Assembly: GCA_047601445.1 (NCBI GenBank)
Contig: JASGJH010000001.1
Span: 6,688,001-6,752,000 of the forward strand
DNA from: Myxococcales bacterium
GTDB taxonomy: Bacteria; Myxococcota_A; Polyangia; Polyangiales; DASUME01
Length of the DNA: 64,000 nt
Reading direction: 5' to 3'
Shown here piece after piece: positions 47,456 through 60,984 of the stretch. Position numbers and translations under genes: made by a program. Under the pieces are notes generated by a model. The model saw nothing but the letters and a program-made list of their open reading frames with translations. It made no database searches and was not told the origin of the DNA. The stretch's first letter is position 1; every line of letters begins with the position of its first letter.

Positions 47456-48650
47456 CTAGAACGACCCGATCAAGAAGGAGCTCAGTGCGACCCGCGAGAG
47501 GTTGGGATCGGTGCCCCACCAATAGGTGAAGTTGGGGCCCGCGCCGAGGCCCCAGCTCTCCGTGAGATGGACGACCAGGGGCATGGCGATCCCAAAGCTG
47601 AGGGCCGTGGACCTGAAATCGGTCTGGGTCGACGAGTAGGAGTCGTAGTCGTAGGGGACGTGATAGTTGTTGTGGACCCAAGCGACGCCGAGCGCAGGCC
47701 ACAGCCAGAGGCCCACGTTGGCTCCGACCCGGGCTTCGTAGATCGCGTGCACGCTGCCACCCATGACGAGGGATTGCCGATTAAATCCGTAGCCCAGCGC
47801 TTCGTCTTGGCGCGACACGAGCAAGCTGGCTCCGATCGCGAATCGCTCGGCGATGAAATAGGCGAAGCCAGGCGTGAGCCCGAGGTTCCAGTGCCGCGAG
47901 TACCCGCTTGGCGAGTCGAGCCCGATGGTGACGCCGCCAGTCAGCATCCTTCGCCCGCGCGAGGTGAGCTTCGTTGTCTTCTTCTGTCGTGACACCTGCT
48001 CGGCGACGTCGTCGGCCCCGAACGATGCGGCGGTGGGCGCTCCACTCCCCGACACGAGCCGCAAGGCGCGGATCGCTGCAAGTTCGAGCTCAGCGGCTCG
48101 ACGCCGCTTTCGAACCGAATGAATCTTGATGGACCCGTAGATCGTGGCAGCCGTCGCGAGGATACCGGCCGCAAGGAGGGTCGCACCGATCCGACGCTCT
48201 CGTGCACCTTCCGAGGGCGAATAGGCGGGGTCATCGGGATAGTCTTTGTAGGTGTTCCCGTCCTCGACCAAGAGCGCGCCGATGGGCAGCAAGAATCGCG
48301 AGAGCAGGAATCCCCAGGCCCACCGAGAGACCGGGCAGCACCAATGAATTCCCGTCCAGCTCACGGGTGAGGGCCTCTTCGCGTTGGTCGAGTTGGCTCG
48401 CAGCGCGCGCGACTTCCACGGGGGAGGGGGCGGAAGGCGGCACGGATACCGCACTCGGAGGAGTGGATTCAAGGGCCGTTGAAGTGGATTCAAGGGCCGT
48501 TGAAGTGGATTCAGCGACCGGTGGAGCGGCTTCAGGGGCCAGAGGAGCCGATTCAGGGGCTGGAGGAGCGTCTTCCTGTGCAAGGGCGGAGCTGGGCAAG
48601 CCGAGCGAGACCACACAGGCGACGGACAGAATCGTACGGAAGAACGCCAA
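47456..48650 (-). CDS. Secreted/membrane protein with a C-terminal beta-barrel-like region; +1 frameshift at ~48290
   Basis: Signal MAFFRTILSVACVVSLGLPSSALA is in the 48231..48650 frame and switches at ATT C TTG CTG CCC into the 47456 frame, which ends in Phe. 21-bp repeat encoding ESTSTAL. Confidence 0.7.
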
Positions 48651-48845
48651 GGAGCACCGTCTAAGGCTGGAGACTCGGCACGCCTATCACAGCCCTGATA
48701 GCAGGCCAAACTCGAGCAGGGGTGACGACGCGCGGCTGTCGAAGGAACGGCCAGGGGTGATGCCCGCGACGAGTCTTGACCCATCGGTACCCACTATGCG
48801 CGGATGCGGCTTCAAAGCGCTTCCTTTGCTGGGGGACCCTACCTT

Positions 48846-50126
48846 ATGAGCCGACTCACTCGTACCGTCGCGGCCGCCGCCGCAACCCTTCTCGCCGCCG
48901 CTAGCAGCGGTGCCTGTGGCGACGGCGACGACCACGCTGCGCAGGGCGAGCTCGATGGTTCGGTTCGTCATGCTGATGCGTCGAATGACGGTGGCGGTCA
49001 CCCAGCGACCGACAATTCGGAGCCCGAAGCGGGCCCACTGTGGCACTTGAACGACGCGCTACGCGGCGGCGACCTGGGGGAGCCGGCACAGAGCAATCTC
49101 TTTTACTCGCCGCTGAGCATCGGCACTGCACTCGGCATGGTCTACGCGGGCGCCGCTGGGGACACCGAGCTGGAGCTGCACACCTTGCTCGCTCCCGGGA
49201 GGACGTTCGACGAGTTCCACGCGGATCTGGGTCAGCTTTTCTCCACGCTCGTCAGCATGGAGCCTGGTGGCAACACACTGCAGATTGCCAATGCGATCTT
49301 TCCTCGGCCAGGCTTCGAGCTCGAGCCGGCCTACCAACAGACGCTGGCGGACCGCTACCGCGCCGCGATCATGGTGACCGACTTTGCGAGCCCCGAGGCC
49401 GCGTCCATGATCAACAAGTGGACGTCGGAGCAGACCGGTGGACACATCCCGAAGCTGTTCGAAGAGGGGCAGCTGGACGCGACGACGGTGTGTGCGCTCG
49501 TCAATGCCATCTACTTCAAGGCCACGTGGAAGACCTCCTTCGACACGGCCAACACCGGCAACCAATCGTTCACTCTCGAGAGTGGTGAGAAGGTGACGGT
49601 GTCCATGATGCACGGCGAGGGGATGCCCGCGCGCATGGGCGAGATTGGCAGAGCGCAGGTGCTCGAACTGCCCTACCAGGGAGATGACCTGCGCTTCGTG
49701 GCCATCCTGCCGGGTTACGGGCAAACGGTCGCGGACCTCGAGAGCGACCTCGCGACGGAGGACGTAAGCACGGCCCTGAAGGCCACGCGCAACGTCCATG
49801 CGAAAGTGGCCATGCCTCGCTTCACCATGCGCAGCCGACTCGACTTGATTCCACCGCTGCGCAAGCTCGGGGTCACGACCCTCTTCGAGCCTGGCGCCAA
49901 TCTCACGCGCATGAGCGCCTCCACGGACATGTTCATCGACGTGGTGGTGCACGAAGCCTGGGTCGCGGTGGACGAAAACGGCACAGAGGCCGCCGCAGCC
50001 ACGGGCGCCGCCGGGCAAGAGTTCAGCGACCCTAGCATCACGTTGAACAGCCCCTTCCTGTTCTTGATCCGCGATGCCAAGAGTGGAGCCATTCTGTTCG
50101 AAGGTCGCGTGATGGACCCGCGTTAG
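48846..50126 (+). CDS. Serpin (serine protease inhibitor), lipoprotein
   Basis: NLFYSPLSIGTALGMVYAGAAG, LVNAIYFKATW, VLELPY, VDENGTEAAAAT hinge, NSPFLFLIRD...ILFEGRVMDP. Confidence 0.95.
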   Translation: MSRLTRTVAAAAATLLAAASSGACGDGDDHAAQGELDGSVRHADASNDGGGHPATDNSEPEAGPLWHLNDALRGGDLGEPAQSNLFYSPLSIGTALGMVYAGAAGDTELELHTLLAPGRTFDEFHADLGQLFSTLVSMEPGGNTLQIANAIFPRPGFELEPAYQQTLADRYRAAIMVTDFASPEAASMINKWTSEQTGGHIPKLFEEGQLDATTVCALVNAIYFKATWKTSFDTANTGNQSFTLESGEKVTVSMMHGEGMPARMGEIGRAQVLELPYQGDDLRFVAILPGYGQTVADLESDLATEDVSTALKATRNVHAKVAMPRFTMRSRLDLIPPLRKLGVTTLFEPGANLTRMSASTDMFIDVVVHEAWVAVDENGTEAAAATGAAGQEFSDPSITLNSPFLFLIRDAKSGAILFEGRVMDPR

Positions 50127-50193: not shown

Positions 50194-52212
50194 ATGGTGC
50201 GCCAGCTCGTCGTATCGCCATCGCGGTTTGCTTCGATCCTTCCTCGCCTTGGACTCCTGTGCGCCTTGCTGCTCGCGGCGACGGGATGTGACGGTGATTC
50301 CAAGATTTCGCCTGGCGCGGCGCCTCCTCCTGCGGATGCCGGTACGTCGGGAACGAAGTTCTATGAGGTCGAGCTCGATGGTCGCATGGCCGTGCTCGAG
50401 CTCGTGCCCAACGAGGGCGTTCTCGCGAAGGACTACCGCGAGTACATGGCGACGTCCGACGGCCTCGAAGAGATGCCGACGCCGGGGAACCGGACTGCGT
50501 GCATGTTCCGTGGAGGTGCGGCCTGGGCCGACGGCGCGGACAGCACGGGGCCACGCTGGAGCGCGCTGAATACCTGCGCTGGTTTCCAGGGATTGATCGC
50601 CCTCGACGGTGAGACCTTCATTCTTGCGCCTGGTGGTGCGGACAACGAGGTCTTGGTCTCTCGCTTGAGTGAAGGGGCCAACGCACCGGTCACCCGCGCC
50701 CGGATCCGCCTGATCGAGCGTGCGCACGGCACCGTGCAAGGGCTGACCGCGGCGCTGGTCACGCCGACCCGATATCTGGAGCTCGTGGTGGTGAGCGATG
50801 CGGCTCGCTTCGAAGCACTCGGTATGGATGCGATGACGGACGCGGTGCAGATCGCGAACTTGACCGATGCCATCTATCGGAACGGGACGATATCGCCTGC
50901 GGTCGCCATCGTCGTCACGGCCAACGTCGTGATTCCCGGTGGTACGGACCCCTGGACCGTCCCGCCCTCGGGGGACGTGGACCCATCGGTGGTGCTGACG
51001 AACTTCTCGGGCTGGGCACGTACCCATCTGCTCAAGGGCGACGAGCATTTCCTGCTCACACAGCGTGAACTGACGGATGCGACGGTCGGGCTCACCTACG
51101 TGAGTGCGGCATGCAAGACCTTCAAGCAAGGCATGGTGCAAGCTACGTTTCCGCAAGCGATCACTGCGACGACGCTCGCGCACGAGCTGGGACACAGCCT
51201 TGGCATGTCGCACGATGGCAGTTCAGCATCCTGCCCCTCGGGTCCCTGGATCATGGCTCCGAACGTGTCGACGCCACCCGCGACGACCTGGTCTGCGTGC
51301 AGCGGGACGGCGCTCGCGAGCTATGTAGCTTCGCTCGGGTCGCCTGGATGCCTCGATAACGTCCCCGTCCCGGACACCACAGCGCCGACCTGTGGTGATG
51401 GCTTCCGTGATCCTGGCGAGCACTGTGACTGCGGCAGCAACGACTGCACCGGCTTCGACCCCTGCTGCAACGGGCTCACCTGCCAGCTCGTCGCGGGCGC
51501 CAGTTGCAGTCAGCTGGATGGTTGCTGCAACAACTGCCAGGTCGCGCCACAAGGCACCACCTGTGAGGCCGCGACGGTGTGCTCGCCGGCAGCGGTCTGT
51601 TCGGGCACCAGCTCGGCCTGTCCGAAACCCGCACCGTTTGCCAACGGCAGCGCCTGCGCCGTCGCTGGATTCACGGATGGCGTTTGCTTCCAGGGCCAGT
51701 GCGAGAGCCTCGGCCAGCAATGTGACGACGTACGTCCTGGCTCCGTTCCTTGCGGGACCGGGTGCGACGCTCTCCCCTGCCGAGATGCGACCTACGGGTG
51801 CGTCGACTGGCTAGTGGAGGCTCAGGACGGCACGCGCTGCGGCAGCGGTCGCCAGTGCGACCAGGGGAGCTGCGTACTCACCTCCACGCTTGCGTTGTGT
51901 GCCCACGACCTGCCCACGAACGCGTGCGGCGGCTGCTCCAGCTTGGCCGTCGCCCCCGGCACCGCCTGCAACACCTGCGGCGTGATGAACTGCGTCTCGC
52001 CGAGCGAAGTGAGGTGCAGTGTCGCCAACGCGAGTGCGTGTCCGAACCCCAACGCCAGCCCCGTGCCAGTGGGCTCTACCAGTCACCTGCTGCTGGTCGC
52101 CTTGGCGTTGCTGGCGATGGGAGGACTGGGCTTGTCCCGCGAGTTCGCCATCACACGCCTGGAAAAACTCCGAGGCGCGCGGGCTCGCGTATACAATCGC
52201 GCCCATGAGTAG
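50194..52212 (+). CDS. ADAM-like protein: M12B pro-domain, reprolysin metalloprotease, disintegrin, Cys-rich region and C-terminal TM
   Basis: RYLELVVVSD, HELGHSLGMSHD, WIMAP Met-turn, CGDGFRDPGEHCDCG...CC...CQL...C...CCNNCQ. Confidence 0.9.
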   Translation: MVRQLVVSPSRFASILPRLGLLCALLLAATGCDGDSKISPGAAPPPADAGTSGTKFYEVELDGRMAVLELVPNEGVLAKDYREYMATSDGLEEMPTPGNRTACMFRGGAAWADGADSTGPRWSALNTCAGFQGLIALDGETFILAPGGADNEVLVSRLSEGANAPVTRARIRLIERAHGTVQGLTAALVTPTRYLELVVVSDAARFEALGMDAMTDAVQIANLTDAIYRNGTISPAVAIVVTANVVIPGGTDPWTVPPSGDVDPSVVLTNFSGWARTHLLKGDEHFLLTQRELTDATVGLTYVSAACKTFKQGMVQATFPQAITATTLAHELGHSLGMSHDGSSASCPSGPWIMAPNVSTPPATTWSACSGTALASYVASLGSPGCLDNVPVPDTTAPTCGDGFRDPGEHCDCGSNDCTGFDPCCNGLTCQLVAGASCSQLDGCCNNCQVAPQGTTCEAATVCSPAAVCSGTSSACPKPAPFANGSACAVAGFTDGVCFQGQCESLGQQCDDVRPGSVPCGTGCDALPCRDATYGCVDWLVEAQDGTRCGSGRQCDQGSCVLTSTLALCAHDLPTNACGGCSSLAVAPGTACNTCGVMNCVSPSEVRCSVANASACPNPNASPVPVGSTSHLLLVALALLAMGGLGLSREFAITRLEKLRGARARVYNRAHE

Positions 52213-52618
52213 TACCCATGCCGACGAGCCGCTGCACCCGAACGTCGCGGCCTACTGGCGCTTGATCGAGGCCTTCAATCGCAACGACCTGGAGACCGTG
52301 GGCGCGGTGCTCGACCCGGACATCGTTTACACCATCCCGGGCCAAAGTGCGGTCGCTGCCCGCACACGTGGAATCACCGCTCACTTGGAAGCGCTGCGAC
52401 GCACCCGTGAGCGAAGCGGCAATACACTCAAACTGGAACCGAAGACCGTGGTGGCGGGCGGTGACCGAGTGTTCGTGTTCGGACGCATTTCCGCCGAGCG
52501 CAACGGTGTGCACTTCGAGAGCGACCACTATGTGGTCTTTCGATTTGCGAACGGTCGCATCGTGGAAGGCATCACACTACCTGTCGATCAGTACGCCTTC
52601 GACGCGTTTTGGGCCTGA
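52205..52618 (+). CDS. SnoaL/NTF2-like protein
   Basis: LIEAFNRNDLETV...DPDIVYTIPG...VFRFANGRIVE...DAFW; overlaps the ADAM stop. Confidence 0.9.
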   Translation: MSSTHADEPLHPNVAAYWRLIEAFNRNDLETVGAVLDPDIVYTIPGQSAVAARTRGITAHLEALRRTRERSGNTLKLEPKTVVAGGDRVFVFGRISAERNGVHFESDHYVVFRFANGRIVEGITLPVDQYAFDAFWA

Positions 52619-56631: not shown

Positions 56632-57813
56632 TCAGCGTACGCACGTCGGTCCACGGGGCCTGCCGACCCGAGGTCTACGGCGCCAGGCCACGGTCGCCGC
56701 GAGGGCCGCCAGGATGAACACGCCCGGCGTTGGTGGCATCGACCTACGCGTCGCGATGCTGCAGCCATCGTCAGCCGAGCCCTGGCTTGGCTCGAAGTCG
56801 ACGGATCCATGGGCTGCGCCGCCGTCAGCCTTGCCTTCGTCACTATCTTCGGCTCCGGCATCCTCCTCGGCTTCGTTCTGGTCGTCCGTGTCGTCCGCCA
56901 TTCCGCTCGCGCCCGAGTCTGCGGTCTTTCCAGCGTCGCTCGCCGATCCCGCGTCGACATGGCTTCCTGCATCACGATCAGTCCCCGTTGACCCTCCGCT
57001 GGATCCGCGCGGCACGTACTGGTCGATGAAGTCGAGGTATGGGTCCACGCGTTGGTAGTGCGAGGCCATTCGACAGCGGCTCGCGTCGCCGGTCTCGTCG
57101 CTATAGGAGTCCGTTCCGATGATGGTCCAGACGCCGTTGACCTCCGCGAGCACCGGGCCGCCCGAATCCCCGACGCAGGCATGTTGCACGGTGTCGCCTA
57201 CCGTGATCGTGTCGGTGGGATCGAGCTTGGCCGAGAGTTCGTCTGCCCTGTACTTGGTCACCGCAAAGGTCGTGTCCCGGTCGTGCGTCTTTCCGTAGCC
57301 GACGATGCTGACGTTGCCGAGAACCGCGGCGGTTGGCTTGGTGCGGAGGATAGGGAGCGCTGTCACGTTCTTGAGGCTGTCTTGCAGGATCACCAGACCG
57401 ATGTCGTAGTATCCATTGCTGGTCACGTACTCGGGATGCAGGTGGACGGCCTTGGCCATGTGAAGTTGAGCTTTGACGCTCGACTGGCTGGGATCGATCG
57501 GTGTGCCGAGAGCTTTCCCGTCGTCGCCGAGATAGGCCGCGTTGTACTCGTGGTTCGAGTCCAAGCAGTGAGCCGCCGTGAGCAGGACGTTCGGCGCCAC
57601 CACCTCGGCCGTGCAGGAGCCGAGCGTTCCCACCGGATCGGAGGAATCCCATGAGAGCAGCAGGACTACGTTCGGATCACCTCGATCCCGCGTTCCGCCA
57701 GCGAGCTCCAGCGATGTCGCATTCACGTTCTCGTCGGGACCGGAGTCGCAAGCGAGGGGGAGTGCCAAGAGAGGCACGAGCAGGGCAAGCTGGGGTCGGT
57801 TTCTGATGCGCAT
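56632..57813 (-). CDS. S1 (trypsin-fold) serine protease with MYXO-CTERM-like tail
   Basis: LTAAHC, YDIGL, GDSGGP triad; lipobox LPLAC; DDGCSI...ILAALAATVAWRRR. Confidence 0.9.
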   Translation of the reverse strand: MRIRNRPQLALLVPLLALPLACDSGPDENVNATSLELAGGTRDRGDPNVVLLLSWDSSDPVGTLGSCTAEVVAPNVLLTAAHCLDSNHEYNAAYLGDDGKALGTPIDPSQSSVKAQLHMAKAVHLHPEYVTSNGYYDIGLVILQDSLKNVTALPILRTKPTAAVLGNVSIVGYGKTHDRDTTFAVTKYRADELSAKLDPTDTITVGDTVQHACVGDSGGPVLAEVNGVWTIIGTDSYSDETGDASRCRMASHYQRVDPYLDFIDQYVPRGSSGGSTGTDRDAGSHVDAGSASDAGKTADSGASGMADDTDDQNEAEEDAGAEDSDEGKADGGAAHGSVDFEPSQGSADDGCSIATRRSMPPTPGVFILAALAATVAWRRRPRVGRPRGPTCVR

Positions 57814-57885
57814 TTGTGCCGTCTCCTTTGGGGGCCACTGCCGCGGTTGCTCCGCGGGGCTGCAGATGAACAGAACGAACGCCTC

Positions 57886-59031
57886 CTAGAGAATCGGCGG
57901 CTCGCACGCGACCTTGACGCGGACCGTGCGCTGGCTGCTCGCGGCGAGGTCTTCGCAGGCCTTGCCGAGTACCGTCACGGTGCGACCATCCATGCTCAGG
58001 CTGAAGCCGTTGGGATCGTCGAGCTTCAGGGTGGTCTGGTCGAGGGTGACCGCTACATAGCTGCGTGAATTGGGCGCTTTGTCGAGCCTGACGGCGCATG
58101 ACGTGGCCTTGCCCAAGATGCCCTCGAGGGCCTGCTGGAGCGACTGCTGGTTCTCCACGGCAATGTGCTCGGTGGAACCGGTGTCGCCGGCCGCGGCCAT
58201 CATGTCCATCGCGGGCTTCAGGTCCGCCTGCGTGTTGTAGCCAATCACGTAGGTGTGCGTGCCTTGCGCGGCGAGCTGTTCGATCTGCTTGACGGTGTTC
58301 TCCAGATCGGGCGCATCGGAGGCGGCGACATCGGCGCAGTTGGGGGCGCCGTCCGTGACCAGCAGCACGTAGCGAGGCGTGACCATCGCGTCTGGATCAC
58401 TCGAGGTCGATCCCAGTACCTTGCCTGCTTCTGCGAGGGTTGCGCTGGTGGGAGTTCCGCCAAATGGGCTCATCTTGCTGAGGGCCGCGTCGATGGCGGC
58501 AGCCTGGTGGAGCCCGACGGGCACCTCGAGCGTACCGGCGTCGCAGGAAACGGAGTTGCTTTGAGAGGAGCAACTCACGGAGTTGCCCACGCGGACGCAG
58601 TTCTGGGTCGGGTCCTCGATTCCTGGGAAGACCATCAGACCGAACTTCGCGCGCGCATCCAGGTTCGCCGTGACCTCGGTGACCGCCGCGACGGACGGGT
58701 CCCAGCGGTTGACATCGAGGGTCTTCATGCTGCCGGATCGGTCGAGTACGATCAGCATCTCCGGGATCACGCCCTGGCTTCGCAGGATCTGCTCTTCGCA
58801 GATGCCGCCTACGTTCTGGCCTCCGCCATCGCCCGGCCCAGTTCCGTCGCCGTCGCCGTCACCCGCGCCTTGGTCATCGCCGTCGCCGTCGCCATCCGTG
58901 CGGATCGGATCGTCGTCGGTGGTCGTGTCGCCAGTCGGGGAAGGGGCTGCCGTCCTCGTTGGGTCCGGCTCAGCAGCACAAGACGCTGCCTCCAGGATGC
59001 TCCACCAGTACAGGACTTTCAAAACTCGCAC
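57886..59031 (-). CDS. vWA-domain lipoprotein
   Basis: MIDAS LIVLDRSGSM, GGTPT, LLVTDGAPNC; GDGDGD linker; start inferred at GTG 59031. Confidence 0.85.
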   Translation of the reverse strand: MRVLKVLYWWSILEAASCAAEPDPTRTAAPSPTGDTTTDDDPIRTDGDGDGDDQGAGDGDGDGTGPGDGGGQNVGGICEEQILRSQGVIPEMLIVLDRSGSMKTLDVNRWDPSVAAVTEVTANLDARAKFGLMVFPGIEDPTQNCVRVGNSVSCSSQSNSVSCDAGTLEVPVGLHQAAAIDAALSKMSPFGGTPTSATLAEAGKVLGSTSSDPDAMVTPRYVLLVTDGAPNCADVAASDAPDLENTVKQIEQLAAQGTHTYVIGYNTQADLKPAMDMMAAAGDTGSTEHIAVENQQSLQQALEGILGKATSCAVRLDKAPNSRSYVAVTLDQTTLKLDDPNGFSLSMDGRTVTVLGKACEDLAASSQRTVRVKVACEPPIL

Positions 59032-59203
59032 CCTCGCAGGCGAGTGACGGCCTGCGATGCCGTGTCGACGGATCCATGGCGTAATGGCCCAGCGGGCGCG
59101 CGTCGGTGACGACATATCCCTCCTCCTTCTTGGCTCTGACTCGTGTCCCGCAGATGCGGAACGAAATATTGGAAGCCCGTGACGGCCGTCGATGGCCCGC
59201 GGT

Positions 59204-60838
59204 TCAGCGCGCGGGCAGCACGCTCGCCAGCGAGAGGCGAACACCGGCGAGTTCGATCGTCGACCAGCTCGCTCGTGGCTCGGGGATATCCACGAAGCTC
59301 TCGCTGCTGTGATCCAGTCGGGTGCGACTTGCTTCGAGCTCTGCGAGCAGCGCGCCGTGGGCATCGAAGACCCGCAAGGGCTCACGTGCTCCATTCGGCG
59401 CTTCGCGCTTGGTCAGCCCAGCCCAGCGAGCTTGATGATCGGCGTAGATGATCAAACGGACCCAGGCGCTGTCGACGCTCGATGGCTCATTGCTCTTGAC
59501 GATGAGCGGCGTCGTGTTCACCGAGAGCGCGCGATCGGCCAGCGCGGCATAGTTGTAGTCGCTGATCCACTGCGGTTCGCAGTAGCCCATGAAGTCCTTC
59601 ACATCCGGAGGGATCAGCTCCTGGCTGCGCGAATCCCAGCCCCAACTCCCGATGTCGCCACCGGGGTAGGGGTACTTCCGGTCGGGCCCCGCGGCGCCGC
59701 CACAGGGCGCATGCGGACGACCGTGGGCGTGCCCGATCTCGTGTACCGCGCTCGAGTAGGTGGACTCGCCGCCGAAGCCGAGACTCAAGCCGACTTGGTC
59801 GCCGGTGGAGGCTGTGATGTTCAGCGGCGCGAGCCCAGACACGCAACCGCCCGTGCAGAAGTCGCTCCTGCGGCGCGCGGGGGCCACCAGTCCAAGGTAG
59901 TAAACGTCGTCTTCGACGTCGTCGTTTTGGCGTTGCCTGGTGATCGCTGCGAGCAGCTCGGACCAGCCTTGACCCGACGAGGTCACGGCGTAGTTCCAGG
60001 ACATCATGGGAGCCAAGCTGACGTCGACCTTGGGCACGGGGTAGTGAGCCAAGAATGCCGAGCGCAGCCCGTCGACCAGCGTCGCGCTCGTGTCGGGCAC
60101 GAAGTTGCCGACGCGGACTGGCACGAGGACCAAGCGCAGGGTGCCGATCTCCGTGGCATCGAGCGGCTCTGAGCCGCTGCTCGGCGTCCGCGCGCGCAGG
60201 TTCGGCTTGCGCTTGGGATCGCACTTCACTTCCACCACGGATGCGGAGATCTCCGTGTTGGTTCCCAATGCCGCGGCGGGCACACTGAAGTTGAAGGTGC
60301 TCTCGAGGTCGCTTTCCACCGAAGCTGACCGCGGCGTCAGCTTGGCTTCGAGCATGGTCATCTCACTGCCGTTGGTGAGCGTGAGGATGCCGAGCACCTC
60401 ATGGGGCGCGTAGCCTGTGAGTGGCTTGATGAACAGGCGGACCAGCGCCTGCTTGTTCTGCACCACGGGGGCCGGTCGATCGGTGACCCATTCTTCTTCG
60501 GCGAAAAGCGGGATCTTGACGGCCTGGTAGAGCGACAGTTCGGTGATGCTCAGGGTCTCCACCAGCGATTCATTGCCCGCGCTACACGGTCCGGGAGGAA
60601 GCGCAGCATCGACGCCTGCGTCGCGCGGCGCCGTGTGGCCGGCATCCCTGGCATGCGACGATGCGTCTCGTGGCGAGTCATCGTCGCCACCATCATCGTG
60701 ATCTCGGCTTCCTCCGTCGAGCTCGTCTTCCGAGCTGGGCCCCGAGTCGAACACGGACGCTGGTTGCGTATCCGTGCGCGTGGGTACGTCTCCGGCACAA
60801 GCCGCGAGTAGCACTGCGAGAGAAGGGGTGAGCCGCAT
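59204..60838 (-). CDS. Zinc metallopeptidase lipoprotein (M66-like)
   Basis: HEIGHAHGRPHAPCG, DRKYPY...IGSWGWD, KDFMGYC. Confidence 0.8.
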   Translation of the reverse strand: MRLTPSLAVLLAACAGDVPTRTDTQPASVFDSGPSSEDELDGGSRDHDDGGDDDSPRDASSHARDAGHTAPRDAGVDAALPPGPCSAGNESLVETLSITELSLYQAVKIPLFAEEEWVTDRPAPVVQNKQALVRLFIKPLTGYAPHEVLGILTLTNGSEMTMLEAKLTPRSASVESDLESTFNFSVPAAALGTNTEISASVVEVKCDPKRKPNLRARTPSSGSEPLDATEIGTLRLVLVPVRVGNFVPDTSATLVDGLRSAFLAHYPVPKVDVSLAPMMSWNYAVTSSGQGWSELLAAITRQRQNDDVEDDVYYLGLVAPARRRSDFCTGGCVSGLAPLNITASTGDQVGLSLGFGGESTYSSAVHEIGHAHGRPHAPCGGAAGPDRKYPYPGGDIGSWGWDSRSQELIPPDVKDFMGYCEPQWISDYNYAALADRALSVNTTPLIVKSNEPSSVDSAWVRLIIYADHQARWAGLTKREAPNGAREPLRVFDAHGALLAELEASRTRLDHSSESFVDIPEPRASWSTIELAGVRLSLASVLPAR

Positions 60839-60984
60839 GGGAAGCATACCTTGGATGAGGCGCCCGCGGACGAGCGCATACGGCACGGCATTCCGAGCGA
60901 CTGGCGCTCGGGCGTTGAGTAAGGTTCAAACGTCTTGTCGAGTCGTGTCTGTGGTCTGCTGTCGCGCTGTCGCGCCTTCAGACG

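Follow-up and report, generated by a model that had tools for sequence, protein, structure and literature searches.

Can a bacterial chromosome carry a protease with the whole domain order of the ADAM family (a disintegrin and metalloprotease), and if it can, is the gene native to its genome and where does it stand relative to the eukaryotic members? The question is raised by a single gene within a 64,000-nucleotide stretch of DNA from a soil-type Myxococcales bacterium (hereafter 'the window'; positions 6,688,001 to 6,752,000 of a single 9,502,601-bp contig). Its product, P0001, had been described in a sequence-only reading as a complete ADAM-type protein. We examined that description using domain searches, structure prediction, analysis of the locus and phylogeny. 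We believe that P0001 is an extracytoplasmic, membrane-tethered zinc endopeptidase zymogen (MEROPS family M12B) belonging to an old lineage that was transferred between domains of life, and would put the probability of this reading at roughly 0.7. An ADAM-like protein in this bacterium is not a singular case, as the relatives described below indicate.

Domain order and predicted fold of P0001

From its N- to its C-terminus, P0001 is read as a lipoprotein signal, an M12B propeptide, a reprolysin-type catalytic domain, a disintegrin-like domain, a compact ADAM-type cysteine-rich (Cys-rich) domain, a module with eight cysteines (8-Cys module), a hydrophobic helix and a basic tail (Table 1). Three Pfam models matched it above their gathering cut-offs: Pep_M12B_propep (PF01562; residues 52–107, 27.2 bits against 23.7), Reprolysin (PF01421; residues 193–391, 88.1 bits against 20.8, model positions 1–200 of 200) and Disintegrin (PF00200; residues 406–478, 49.3 bits against 35.1, model positions 1–74 of 75). 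The sequence-only reading had named these three families, together with ADAM_CR (PF08516), as those to be looked for, and its case depended on the region scoring as a disintegrin, which it does; the ADAM_CR hidden Markov model, on the other hand, gave no match at E ≤ 1. ADAMTS_CR_2 reached 19.7 bits over residues 501–561, under its cut-off of 27.3. Pfam also returned no EGF family ahead of the membrane helix, no TSP1 match, and nothing at E ≤ 1 for the 8-Cys module, while no NCBIfam model scored above its cut-off. The short motifs quoted in the earlier description are all present (CMFRG, SALNTCAGFQGLI, ETFILAP, YLELVVVSD, TVGLTYV, HELGHSLGMSHD, WSACS, CLDNVP, CGDG, GEHCDCG, CCNNCQ, CSGTSSACP, GVCFQGQC and DGTRCGSGRQCDQGSCV). 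The 42 cysteines are divided among the signal peptide (one), the lipobox (Cys32), the prodomain (two), the catalytic domain (four), the disintegrin-like and Cys-rich domains (26) and the 8-Cys module (eight).

A phmmer comparison with PDB sequences gave 66 distinct sequences at E ≤ 0.001. P-III snake venom metalloproteinases (SVMPs) were the best of these, including catrocollastatin (2dw0; 1.5e-42, query 190–514) and a K-like SVMP (3k7n; query 193–563), and ADAM22 came next (7e-27); the disintegrin region aligned contiguously with the D domain of catrocollastatin. When a profile of 40 bacterial relatives was aligned by hhalign with one of 19 metazoan ADAMs, the match (probability 100%, E 1.5e-89, 511 columns) extended from residue 50 of P0001, in the prodomain, to residue 566, at the end of the metazoan C domain, and contained two long insertions in the metazoan Cys-rich domain that are missing from the bacterial proteins.

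The full-length AlphaFold2 model (88-row alignment) had a mean predicted local distance difference test score (pLDDT) of 82.1 and a predicted template modelling score (pTM) of 0.61. Between residues 50 and 570, most blocks of 10 residues averaged about 90 or more, and confidence was low at residues 1–9, 33–48, 585–628 (pLDDT below 50) and 645–672. Foldseek placed VAP1 first (E 2.1e-26, 432 columns) and matched ADAM17 zymogen chains over 590–612 columns. With VIA-align, residues 42–393 of the model superposed on the prodomain and metalloproteinase domain of ADAM17 (9o54_A; Z 27.8, root-mean-square deviation (rmsd) 3.7 Å, 311 residues), and the catalytic domain superposed on those of ADAM8 (4dd8_C; Z 26.5, rmsd 1.9 Å, 191 of 201 residues) and acutolysin-C (Z 25.1, rmsd 2.1 Å). 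The alignment with the metalloproteinase, disintegrin-like and Cys-rich (M/D/C) domains of VAP2 (Z 25.1, 348 residues, model 192–567) had an rmsd of 15 Å, the individual domains fitting while their mutual orientation differs. An ESM Atlas model of the exact P0001 sequence (pTM 0.54) aligned over 480–500 residues to the ADAM28, ADAM8 and ADAM22 clusters, with a TM score of 0.55. The P-III SVMPs (VAP1, catrocollastatin/VAP2B and K-like) are the best matches over the whole M/D/C region both by sequence and by Foldseek (Z about 25 over ~350 residues), but they are secreted animal venom enzymes without a membrane anchor, and have a longer Ch subdomain and a long V-loop (group A; Takeda 2016, PMC4885070). 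By sequence and predicted fold, P0001 is an activatable M12B zymogen with an arm made of disintegrin-like and Cys-rich domains (the D/C arm).

The Cys-rich region was also modelled alone (residues 479–572; pLDDT 91.3) and compared, without the use of Foldseek, with 48,161 PDB representatives. Fourteen chains gave Z ≥ 2, of which 11 were M12B Cys-rich domains. They included those of the K-like SVMP (Z 8.5, 86 residues onto a 122-residue stretch), ADAMTS1 D* (Z 8.1, rmsd 2.6 Å, model 20–89 against chain 477–551) and ADAM22 (Z 6.1, 91 residues onto a 155-residue stretch), with further fold matches to ADAMTS13, ADAMTS5, ADAM17 and ADAM10. Judged by profile–profile alignment and predicted fold, the region is an ADAM-type Cys-rich domain of a compact variant. 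This domain has been described in two forms, one with a long V-loop (in SVMPs and most ADAMs) and one with a short V-loop (in ADAM10/17 and in ADAMTS D*/CA; Takeda 2016, PMC4885070), and the size of the P0001 domain together with its sub-threshold ADAMTS_CR_2 match suggests the short V-loop kind. Its 'hand' is about as large as the ADAMTS D* domain. ADAMTS proteins have no disintegrin-like domain (Takeda 2016, PMC4885070), whereas P0001 has a true one; P0001 also carries a predicted membrane helix but no TSP1 repeat, although its sister proteins P0004 and P0005 do carry TSP1_ADAMTS repeats.

Several genomes of the same order (G010, G021, G022, G031 and others) contain between tens and 138 matches each to positions about 45–75 of the Disintegrin model, which are tandem units of about 32 residues in long open reading frames (ORFs; for example G021:C20:455996-458519). 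These appear to be a Cys-rich repeat of myxobacteria, similar to part of a disintegrin domain. The idea that the Cys-rich part of P0001 is merely such a repeat was rejected: the repeats cover ~45–75 of the Disintegrin model, and P0001 covers 1–74 and aligns with SVMP D domains.

With metazoan ADAMs (ADAM8, 9, 22 and 28, and the ADAM17 zymogen) P0001 shares its prodomain fold, catalytic fold, zinc site and disintegrin-like domain, a Cys-rich domain that ends in GT.CG.G..C..G.CV, and a single predicted C-terminal membrane helix followed by a short tail. It differs from them in the absence of a cysteine switch, of the xCD loop residues and of an EGF-like domain, in a Cys-rich domain without the long insertions (~94 residues to the 155 of ADAM22), in an N-terminal lipobox (by pattern) in place of a plain signal peptide, and in its position outside the metazoan clade. 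The label 'complete ADAM-type' therefore stands for the prodomain, the M12B catalytic domain, the disintegrin-like and Cys-rich domains and the predicted C-terminal helix, and has to be withdrawn for the rest: the protein is ADAM-like, yet it has no cysteine switch, no EGF domain, no long Cys-rich domain of the ADAM_CR (PF08516) type (its own being compact and near ADAMTS D* in size) and no place in the metazoan ADAM group. We regard P0001 as a member of M12B and of a lineage with the order prodomain, metalloproteinase, disintegrin-like, Cys-rich (pro-M-D-C), most fittingly classed with the ADAM-like proteins of protist type.

In alignments with eukaryotic ADAMs, residues H330, E331, H334, H340 and D341 of the zinc site are invariant or nearly so. 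P0001 retains all five together with M354, and its catalytic fold superposes on active enzymes at 1.9–2.1 Å, both of which argue against a non-proteolytic adhesion or receptor molecule resembling dead ADAM22, in which the disintegrin/Cys-rich arm would serve for binding only. Dead members do occur in the family (P0014, with HELGVVLGLPVD at its zinc site) and ADAM22 is among the structural matches, but we consider such a role highly doubtful for P0001.

Table 1. The ADAM-like gene, the parts of its product and the two adjoining genes, with positions in the window.
Feature	Residues	Positions	Strand	Basis or detail
ADAM-like gene (protein P0001)		50194..52212	+	Single ORF at that place, 672 aa
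Signal peptide with lipobox LLAATG-C32, Asp at +2	1–32	50194..50289	+	Read from sequence, pattern match only
M12B prodomain, Cys C103 and C128	~50–189	50341..50760	+	Pfam and model, pLDDT mostly above 85
Reprolysin/adamalysin catalytic domain, Cys 307, 347, 369, 386	190–393	50761..51372	+	Pfam Reprolysin and model
Zinc-binding motif HELGHSLGMSHD (HExxHxxGxxHD)	330–341	51181..51216	+	Sequence
Met-turn M354 (CPSGPWIMAP)		51253..51255	+	Invariant alignment column
Disintegrin-like domain, 15 Cys, loop CEAATVCSPAAVCSG	400–478	51391..51627	+	Pfam Disintegrin; pLDDT about 83–97
Compact ADAM-type Cys-rich domain (predicted), 11 Cys	479–565	51628..51888	+	hhalign and stand-alone model
8-Cys module, fold unassigned, in place of ADAM EGF domain	566–620	51889..52053	+	Cys 569, 578, 581, 592, 595, 600, 608, 616
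C-terminal hydrophobic helix HLLLVALALLAMGGLGL, 17 aa, preceded by SPVPVG	631–647	52084..52134	+	Sequence; model helix 630–644
Basic tail (7 Arg/Lys in 25 aa) and stop codon	648–672	52135..52212	+	Sequence
Serpin, 440 aa, lipoprotein-like N-terminus (…LLAAASSGAC)		48804..50126	+	Pfam Serpin 311.3 bits
SnoaL-like gene		52205..52618	+	Pfam SnoaL_2 59 bits; probable ATG 52205 inferred from sequence

A native gene with relatives in Myxococcota

The host genome (98.68% complete; CheckM-type contamination 5.43%) contains exactly one Disintegrin and one Reprolysin match, corresponding to a single copy of the gene. As had been claimed for its codon use, the gene resembles its neighbours: its GC content is 0.660, its GC content at third codon positions is 0.77 (0.76–0.85 in the neighbours), and its relative synonymous codon usage correlates at 0.937 with that of the 20 other window genes pooled (range among those genes, 0.717–0.984). 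The probable ATG of the SnoaL-like gene overlaps the ADAM-like stop codon by 8 nt, and that SnoaL-like gene is 90% identical in a congener, G007, which does not have the ADAM-like gene. The right flank as a whole (SnoaL, the next ORF (ORF155) and a thiamine pyrophosphate (TPP) enzyme) is kept in G007 at 80–90% identity. The left flank is not; its T2SSE ATPase (61% identity) sits on a different contig, and synteny stops exactly at the 3' end of the ADAM-like gene and the start of the SnoaL-like gene. The other genes of the window are ordinary bacterial ones, among them an epimerase, a T2SSE-family ATPase, the TPP enzyme, a trypsin-like protease, a VWA protein and an M66-like protease. The genome also has six matches above cut-off to MYXO-CTERM, a tag described as universal in Myxococcota (PMC11980579). 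Because the gene lies on one contig, with native codon use, a stop codon that overlaps a conserved neighbour and ordinary bacterial surroundings, in a genome with MYXO-CTERM matches of its own, it is a genuine chromosomal gene of Myxococcota, and a chimera or contaminant is very unlikely; the chimeric contig that the sequence-only reading had allowed for is contradicted by the same observations.

A recent capture from an animal host has been proposed for a bacterial metzincin, the fragilysin (BFT) of Bacteroides fragilis, whose catalytic domain is adamalysin-like and whose latency does not depend on a cysteine switch, the xenolog proposal concerning the catalytic domain only (PMC9848320). P0001 resembles fragilysin in its bacterial host, its adamalysin-like catalytic domain and its lack of a cysteine switch, but differs in that it also has the D and C domains and a prodomain of the ADAM type, and it scores only 11.2 bits with the fragilysin NCBIfam model (TIGR03935, cut-off 190.7). 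The nearest large ESM Atlas clusters are all 100% eukaryotic, the closest named proteins are fish and newt ADAM28 and ADAM9, and the contamination estimate given above is not zero. Yet identity to animal ADAMs is 26–30%, the metazoan clade shuts out the bacterial sequences at a support of 100, the reading frame is uninterrupted on a 9.5-Mb contig and begins with a bacterial lipobox (a pattern match), and homologues are found on Myxococcota contigs as long as 357 kb. We therefore give almost no credence to an assembly chimera, to eukaryotic contamination or to a recent capture of the gene from an animal.

Relatives were sought in several ways. A word-indexed search found three close ones among the 8000 candidates scored, all metagenomic: P0003 (54% identity; its JGI name is 'disintegrin and metalloproteinase domain-containing protein 9'), P0004 (56%, with TSP1_ADAMTS) and P0005 (37%, with TSP1 repeats), followed by the eukaryotic ADAMs. 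An exhaustive HMMER search of 1.84 billion representatives yielded 2930 proteins with E ≤ 1e-3, of which 267 had E ≤ 1e-30; the relatives analysed here are the best 150 of those 2930 matches (50%-identity representatives), about 40 of them bacterial. In 185,579 GTDB species genomes scanned with one peptide pattern, at least 19 loci were confirmed among 46 candidate stretches, a lower bound because of the single pattern. All 19 are in metagenome-assembled genomes (MAGs), and their labels are mostly Myxococcota, Myxococcales, Polyangiaceae, Archangiaceae, Myxococcaceae, Microvenator and Deltaproteobacteria (four are broad or odd). No other bacterial phylum turned up in the best 150 HMMER matches or in the single-pattern GTDB scan. 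Within an even sample of the phylum, in which the two best candidates per genome were scored, 17 of 401 genomes had a match at E ≤ 1e-20 and seven (the host included) had one spanning the catalytic, D and C domains. None of nine same-genus genomes (MAGs, 72–99% complete) had a Disintegrin match. The absence from nine of nine congeners, the seven genomes in 401 and the synteny break together indicate an accessory gene of patchy distribution.

A diversified, Myxococcota-restricted clade of proteins with the predicted pro-M-D-C order exists. Its members are only ~30% identical to each other. In the set of 40, Pfam recognised Reprolysin in all, Disintegrin in 38 and the propeptide in 15, and the catalytic site of three His and one Glu is intact in 39. 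One cysteine falls in the switch stretch in seven of the 40 relatives, four of which (P0027, P0082, P0087 and P0135) read xCGV. A hydrophobic stretch followed by Arg/Lys ends 25 of the 40 by a crude rule (by eye, one of these is doubtful and about five were missed); P0003 has such a stretch followed by RRRR, P0004 has no anchor, and four of the 40 score with MYXO-CTERM.

Individual members vary further. Two or three TSP1 repeats follow the Cys-rich domain in P0004, P0005, P0012, P0013 and P0073, an ADAMTS-like layout, and one bacterial clade member has calcium-binding EGF domains. With its zinc site reading HELGVVLGLPVD, P0014 (locus L028) is probably a bacterial ADAM-like protein without catalytic activity, comparable with the inactive ADAMs of animals. 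Elsewhere in the phylum, ORFs of 665–765 residues in G205, G126, G180, G244 and G406 (one family code) match only the prodomain and catalytic domain (model positions about 63–387) and are bacterial M12B proteins with different C-terminal regions.

In open PMC and bioRxiv texts we found no description of a bacterial pro-M-D-C ADAM-like lineage. The one hint of it is a mention of 'disintegrin' among the Pfam families listed as unique to Minicystis rosea (PMC8436480). The only bacterial ADAM relative discussed in the texts consulted is the fragilysin catalytic domain, and in the available text of a structural review of the family the words 'bacteria' and 'prokaryot' do not occur (Takeda 2016, PMC4885070). 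Domain databases and the automatic naming at JGI already flag such bacterial proteins.

The immediate surroundings of the gene were examined as well. The serpin ends 67 nt upstream, on the same strand, and has a hinge of the inhibitory type (GTEAAAAT). A serpin lies close to the homologue in one of 19 related loci (L024) and in none of six further fetched loci, which overlap those 19; a coupling of serpin and ADAM-like gene as a conserved feature was accordingly rejected. A promoter and terminator scan of the locus gave no promoter-like site and a single terminator-like one, within the SnoaL gene, counts that do not exceed those of shuffled sequence. On the minus strand, positions 56632–60886 hold three consecutive extracellular-type genes, whose products are an S1 protease of the trypsin type, a protein with a VWA domain and one with a short match resembling the zinc site of M66 peptidases. 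Also on that strand, a 442-aa ORF (47456–48784) has no Pfam match, a proline-rich PLNPLQR-type repeat near its N-terminus and an aromatic C-terminal end; it shows the lowest codon-usage correlation of the window (0.717) and may be mis-called or foreign.

Position beside protist proteins and the favoured direction of transfer

Trees were built from the region matching residues 186–570 of P0001, after 15 of 155 proteins had been dropped for partial coverage and two of the 19 loci for want of a phmmer match (L021) or of length (L030). The FastTree tree of 157 rows, which is unrooted, separates a 59-row metazoan clade (support 100, including sponge (Ephydatia) and soft-coral (Xenia) sequences), a grade of protist-type rows, and a 59-row bacterial clade (support 87) that holds all 17 GTDB loci along with composition-typed bacterial rows. 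A second, also unrooted tree was inferred with IQ-TREE under LG+C20+F+G4 (posterior mean site frequencies, PMSF; quick search) from 80 of the 157 rows (33 bacterial, 28 protist-type and 19 metazoan). Here the 33 bacterial rows stand on one side of a branch with an SH-like approximate likelihood ratio (SH-aLRT) support of 89, the 19 metazoan rows group at 100 to the exclusion of P0001, and the bacterial clade lies within a 40-row group (92) together with seven protist-type rows; the named protist-type neighbours are Rhizamoeba saxonica, Cercozoa sp. M6MM and Ploeotia vitrea. P0001, P0003 and P0004 group at 98. Several branches in the trees are long.

Protist ADAM-like proteins (environmental and EukProt sequences), for example from the three species just named and from Nonionella stella, are the nearest branches to the bacterial clade in both trees, and they have the same pro-M-D-C order. 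Domain content agrees with the trees. ADAM_CR matches 18 of 19 metazoan proteins, none of 27 protist-type proteins and, likewise, none of 40 bacterial ones; ADAMTS_CR_2 is found in 10 of 40 bacterial, 2 of 27 protist-type and 0 of 19 metazoan proteins, and TSP1_ADAMTS in 6, 4 and 0 of the same sets, some of the protist proteins having TSP1 after the Cys-rich domain. The protist proteins differ from the bacterial ones in their eukaryotic signal peptides, in the WW or teneurin-type EGF domains that some of them carry, and in having no lipobox and no MYXO-CTERM-like tail; their majority consensus contains the CGV cysteine switch that P0001 lacks. P0015, P0028 and P0030 are protist-type ADAM-like proteins that end in a WW domain (2 of the 27 scanned score WW). 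On the evidence of both trees, the bacterial clade has its closest kin among protist ADAM-like proteins, and metazoan ADAMs stand further away.

The patchy spread of the gene and its position beside protist sequences point to transfer between domains of life, and the compact Cys-rich domain and frequent TSP1 that the clade shares with protist, not metazoan, proteins suggest that the transfer is old. The earlier description had offered horizontal transfer or a bacterial ADAM lineage as alternatives, and both appear to hold: there is a diversified lineage in Myxococcota, and it is spread patchily beside protist sequences. As to direction, we favour transfer from a eukaryote to a myxobacterium, which would have been followed by spread and loss within the phylum.

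The opposite direction has to be weighed against this. If the ADAM family arose in the myxobacterial line or passed early through it, with eukaryotes as the recipients, the window gene would be a vertical or intra-phylum descendant and not a xenolog. The depth of the clade, with its low identity between members, would fit such an origin, as would a repertoire in bacteria that includes the CGV switch (4 of 40), TSP1, EGF and a catalytically dead member; Cys-rich repeats resembling the C-terminal half of the Disintegrin model number from tens to more than 100 in genomes of the same order, so that related modules are abundant; and an unrooted tree with the bacteria on one side of a branch equally allows a root inside the bacteria. 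Midpoint rooting, by contrast, nests the bacteria inside the protist sequences. In eukaryotes, ADAM-like proteins occur in Metazoa, Amoebozoa, Rhizaria, Euglenozoa and one cluster labelled mostly Chlorophyta, but in the bacteria near-full-length matches came from only 7 of 401 sampled genomes of the phylum and are missing from all nine congeners, and no second bacterial phylum appeared among the best 150 HMMER matches or in the single-pattern GTDB scan. We consider a bacterial origin unlikely, and retain the eukaryote-to-myxobacterium direction as the favoured one.

Possible tethering, latency and function

How such an enzyme might work can be outlined from its parts. P0001 would be exported by means of its lipoprotein signal and lipid-modified at Cys32, after which about 20 disulfides would form outside the cytoplasm. 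The lipobox noted in the sequence-only reading (ATGC) is present as LLAATG-C32 and is preceded by a basic n-region and a hydrophobic core, all of this being a pattern match; P0003 and P0004, its closest relatives, likewise have a lipobox-like cysteine, as do 21 of the 40 clade members by a simple pattern. The prodomain would shield the active-site cleft until it is cut away. As had been pointed out, a cysteine switch (xCGV) is absent from it, since no cysteine lies between C128 and C307 (residues 129–192 are Cys-free), and latency would thus have to be achieved without a thiol–zinc bond. The prodomains of ADAM10 and ADAM17 also inhibit independently of a cysteine switch. The activating cut would fall somewhere before residue about 190.

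After activation, the mature M-D-C ectodomain would stay tethered by the C-terminal helix, the VP-led hydrophobic stretch of the earlier description (residues 631–647, after SPVPVG), whose short basic tail of 25 residues would be cytoplasmic by the positive-inside rule. Alternatively, the ectodomain could be passed to the cell surface, as predicted for MYXO-CTERM-tagged relatives. In either place the enzyme would cut extracytoplasmic or extracellular protein substrates selected through its rigid disintegrin-like and compact Cys-rich arm, which in ADAMs and P-III enzymes puts a substrate-binding surface opposite the active site. Selection of substrates by the D/C arm has been proposed for ADAMs and SVMPs (Takeda 2016, PMC4885070). 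Between the arm and the helix lies the 8-Cys module, which is conserved in P0003 and P0004 and poorly modelled in P0001.

A different fate for the C-terminus deserves mention. The helix could be a cleavable sorting signal, in which case the mature enzyme would be passed to the surface or released and would digest the proteins of prey microbes or protists during predation. MYXO-CTERM is cleaved by a myxosortase, with surface display through the type II secretion system (PMC11980579). The frequency of hydrophobic ends followed by Arg/Lys in the clade (25 of 40 by the crude rule) is consistent with such a signal, as are the four members that score MYXO-CTERM, the RRRR end of P0003 and the anchorless P0004, and the window contains a T2SSE-family ATPase beside its trypsin-like protease, VWA protein and M66-like protease. 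The tail of P0001 itself fits less well: it has no MYXO-CTERM score, its 25 residues after the helix are longer than the usual short Arg cluster, and its last cysteine lies 15 residues before the helix and is probably disulfide-bonded, since the module has eight cysteines; the N-terminal lipobox, moreover, would still hold the prodomain. We regard a cleavable signal as the less likely alternative, and prefer the membrane-tethered zymogen.

Several observations weigh against that preferred reading. The lipobox and the membrane helix are readings of patterns. In the last 73 residues of P0001 there is no match to MYXO-CTERM (TIGR03901) at E ≤ 10 and no scoring match to other sorting tags, the best being JDVT-CTERM with 12.3 bits (cut-off 27). 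If it is anchored by lipid at its N-terminus and by a helix at its C-terminus, the ectodomain may simply look into the periplasm from the inner membrane and not be displayed on the cell surface; an Asp at +2 is an inner-membrane retention signal in Escherichia coli, a rule that may not hold in myxobacteria. As the sequence-only reading had stated, the disintegrin loop (CEAATVCSPAAVCSG) contains neither RGD nor xCD. In most relatives it follows CRxxxxxCDxxExC, and in the alignment with catrocollastatin ECDPAEHC pairs with VCSPAAVC of P0001. Acidic residues of this loop help to bind calcium in SVMPs, and the calcium-binding acidic site may have been lost in P0001 and its two closest relatives; given the loss of the acidic xCD..E residues in this subclade, the arm may behave unlike an ADAM arm. 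The adjacency of the serpin is not conserved, so genomic context offers no functional clue. On the evolutionary side, the monophyly of the bacterial proteins is moderately supported (87 and 89), the unrooted trees leave the direction of transfer undecided, and the labels 'bacterial' and 'protist' of unnamed rows derive from amino-acid composition, from signals at the protein ends and from the named rows with which they cluster, names having been looked up for 20 rows. The absence from nine of nine congeners and the synteny break fit transfer within the phylum equally as well as loss.

The claim for this single gene is modest, in that it adds one more member to a lineage, and the lineage is more interesting than the gene. 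Candidate roles for P0001 may include predation, the processing of matrix or surface proteins, and interaction with protists. A wider proposal would be that Myxococcota hold an old and diversified ADAM/ADAMTS-like toolkit (with cysteine-switch, TSP1, EGF and dead forms, many with MYXO-CTERM-type tails) whose members serve social, multicellular or predatory life as sheddases or matrix proteases, and from which the family may have entered eukaryotes; we offer this as a speculation that is unlikely to be right. ADAMs and ADAMTSs have been regarded as proteases of the eukaryotic cell surface and matrix. The complete pro-M-D-C unit is nevertheless present, by prediction with bacterial anchoring devices, in a phylum of bacteria noted for predation and multicellular behaviour. 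This lineage would provide a tractable genetic setting for work on the function of the disintegrin/Cys-rich arm, natural forms that have or lack a cysteine switch and would be useful for studies of latency, and a data set for dating and orienting the inter-domain transfer of a major animal protease family.

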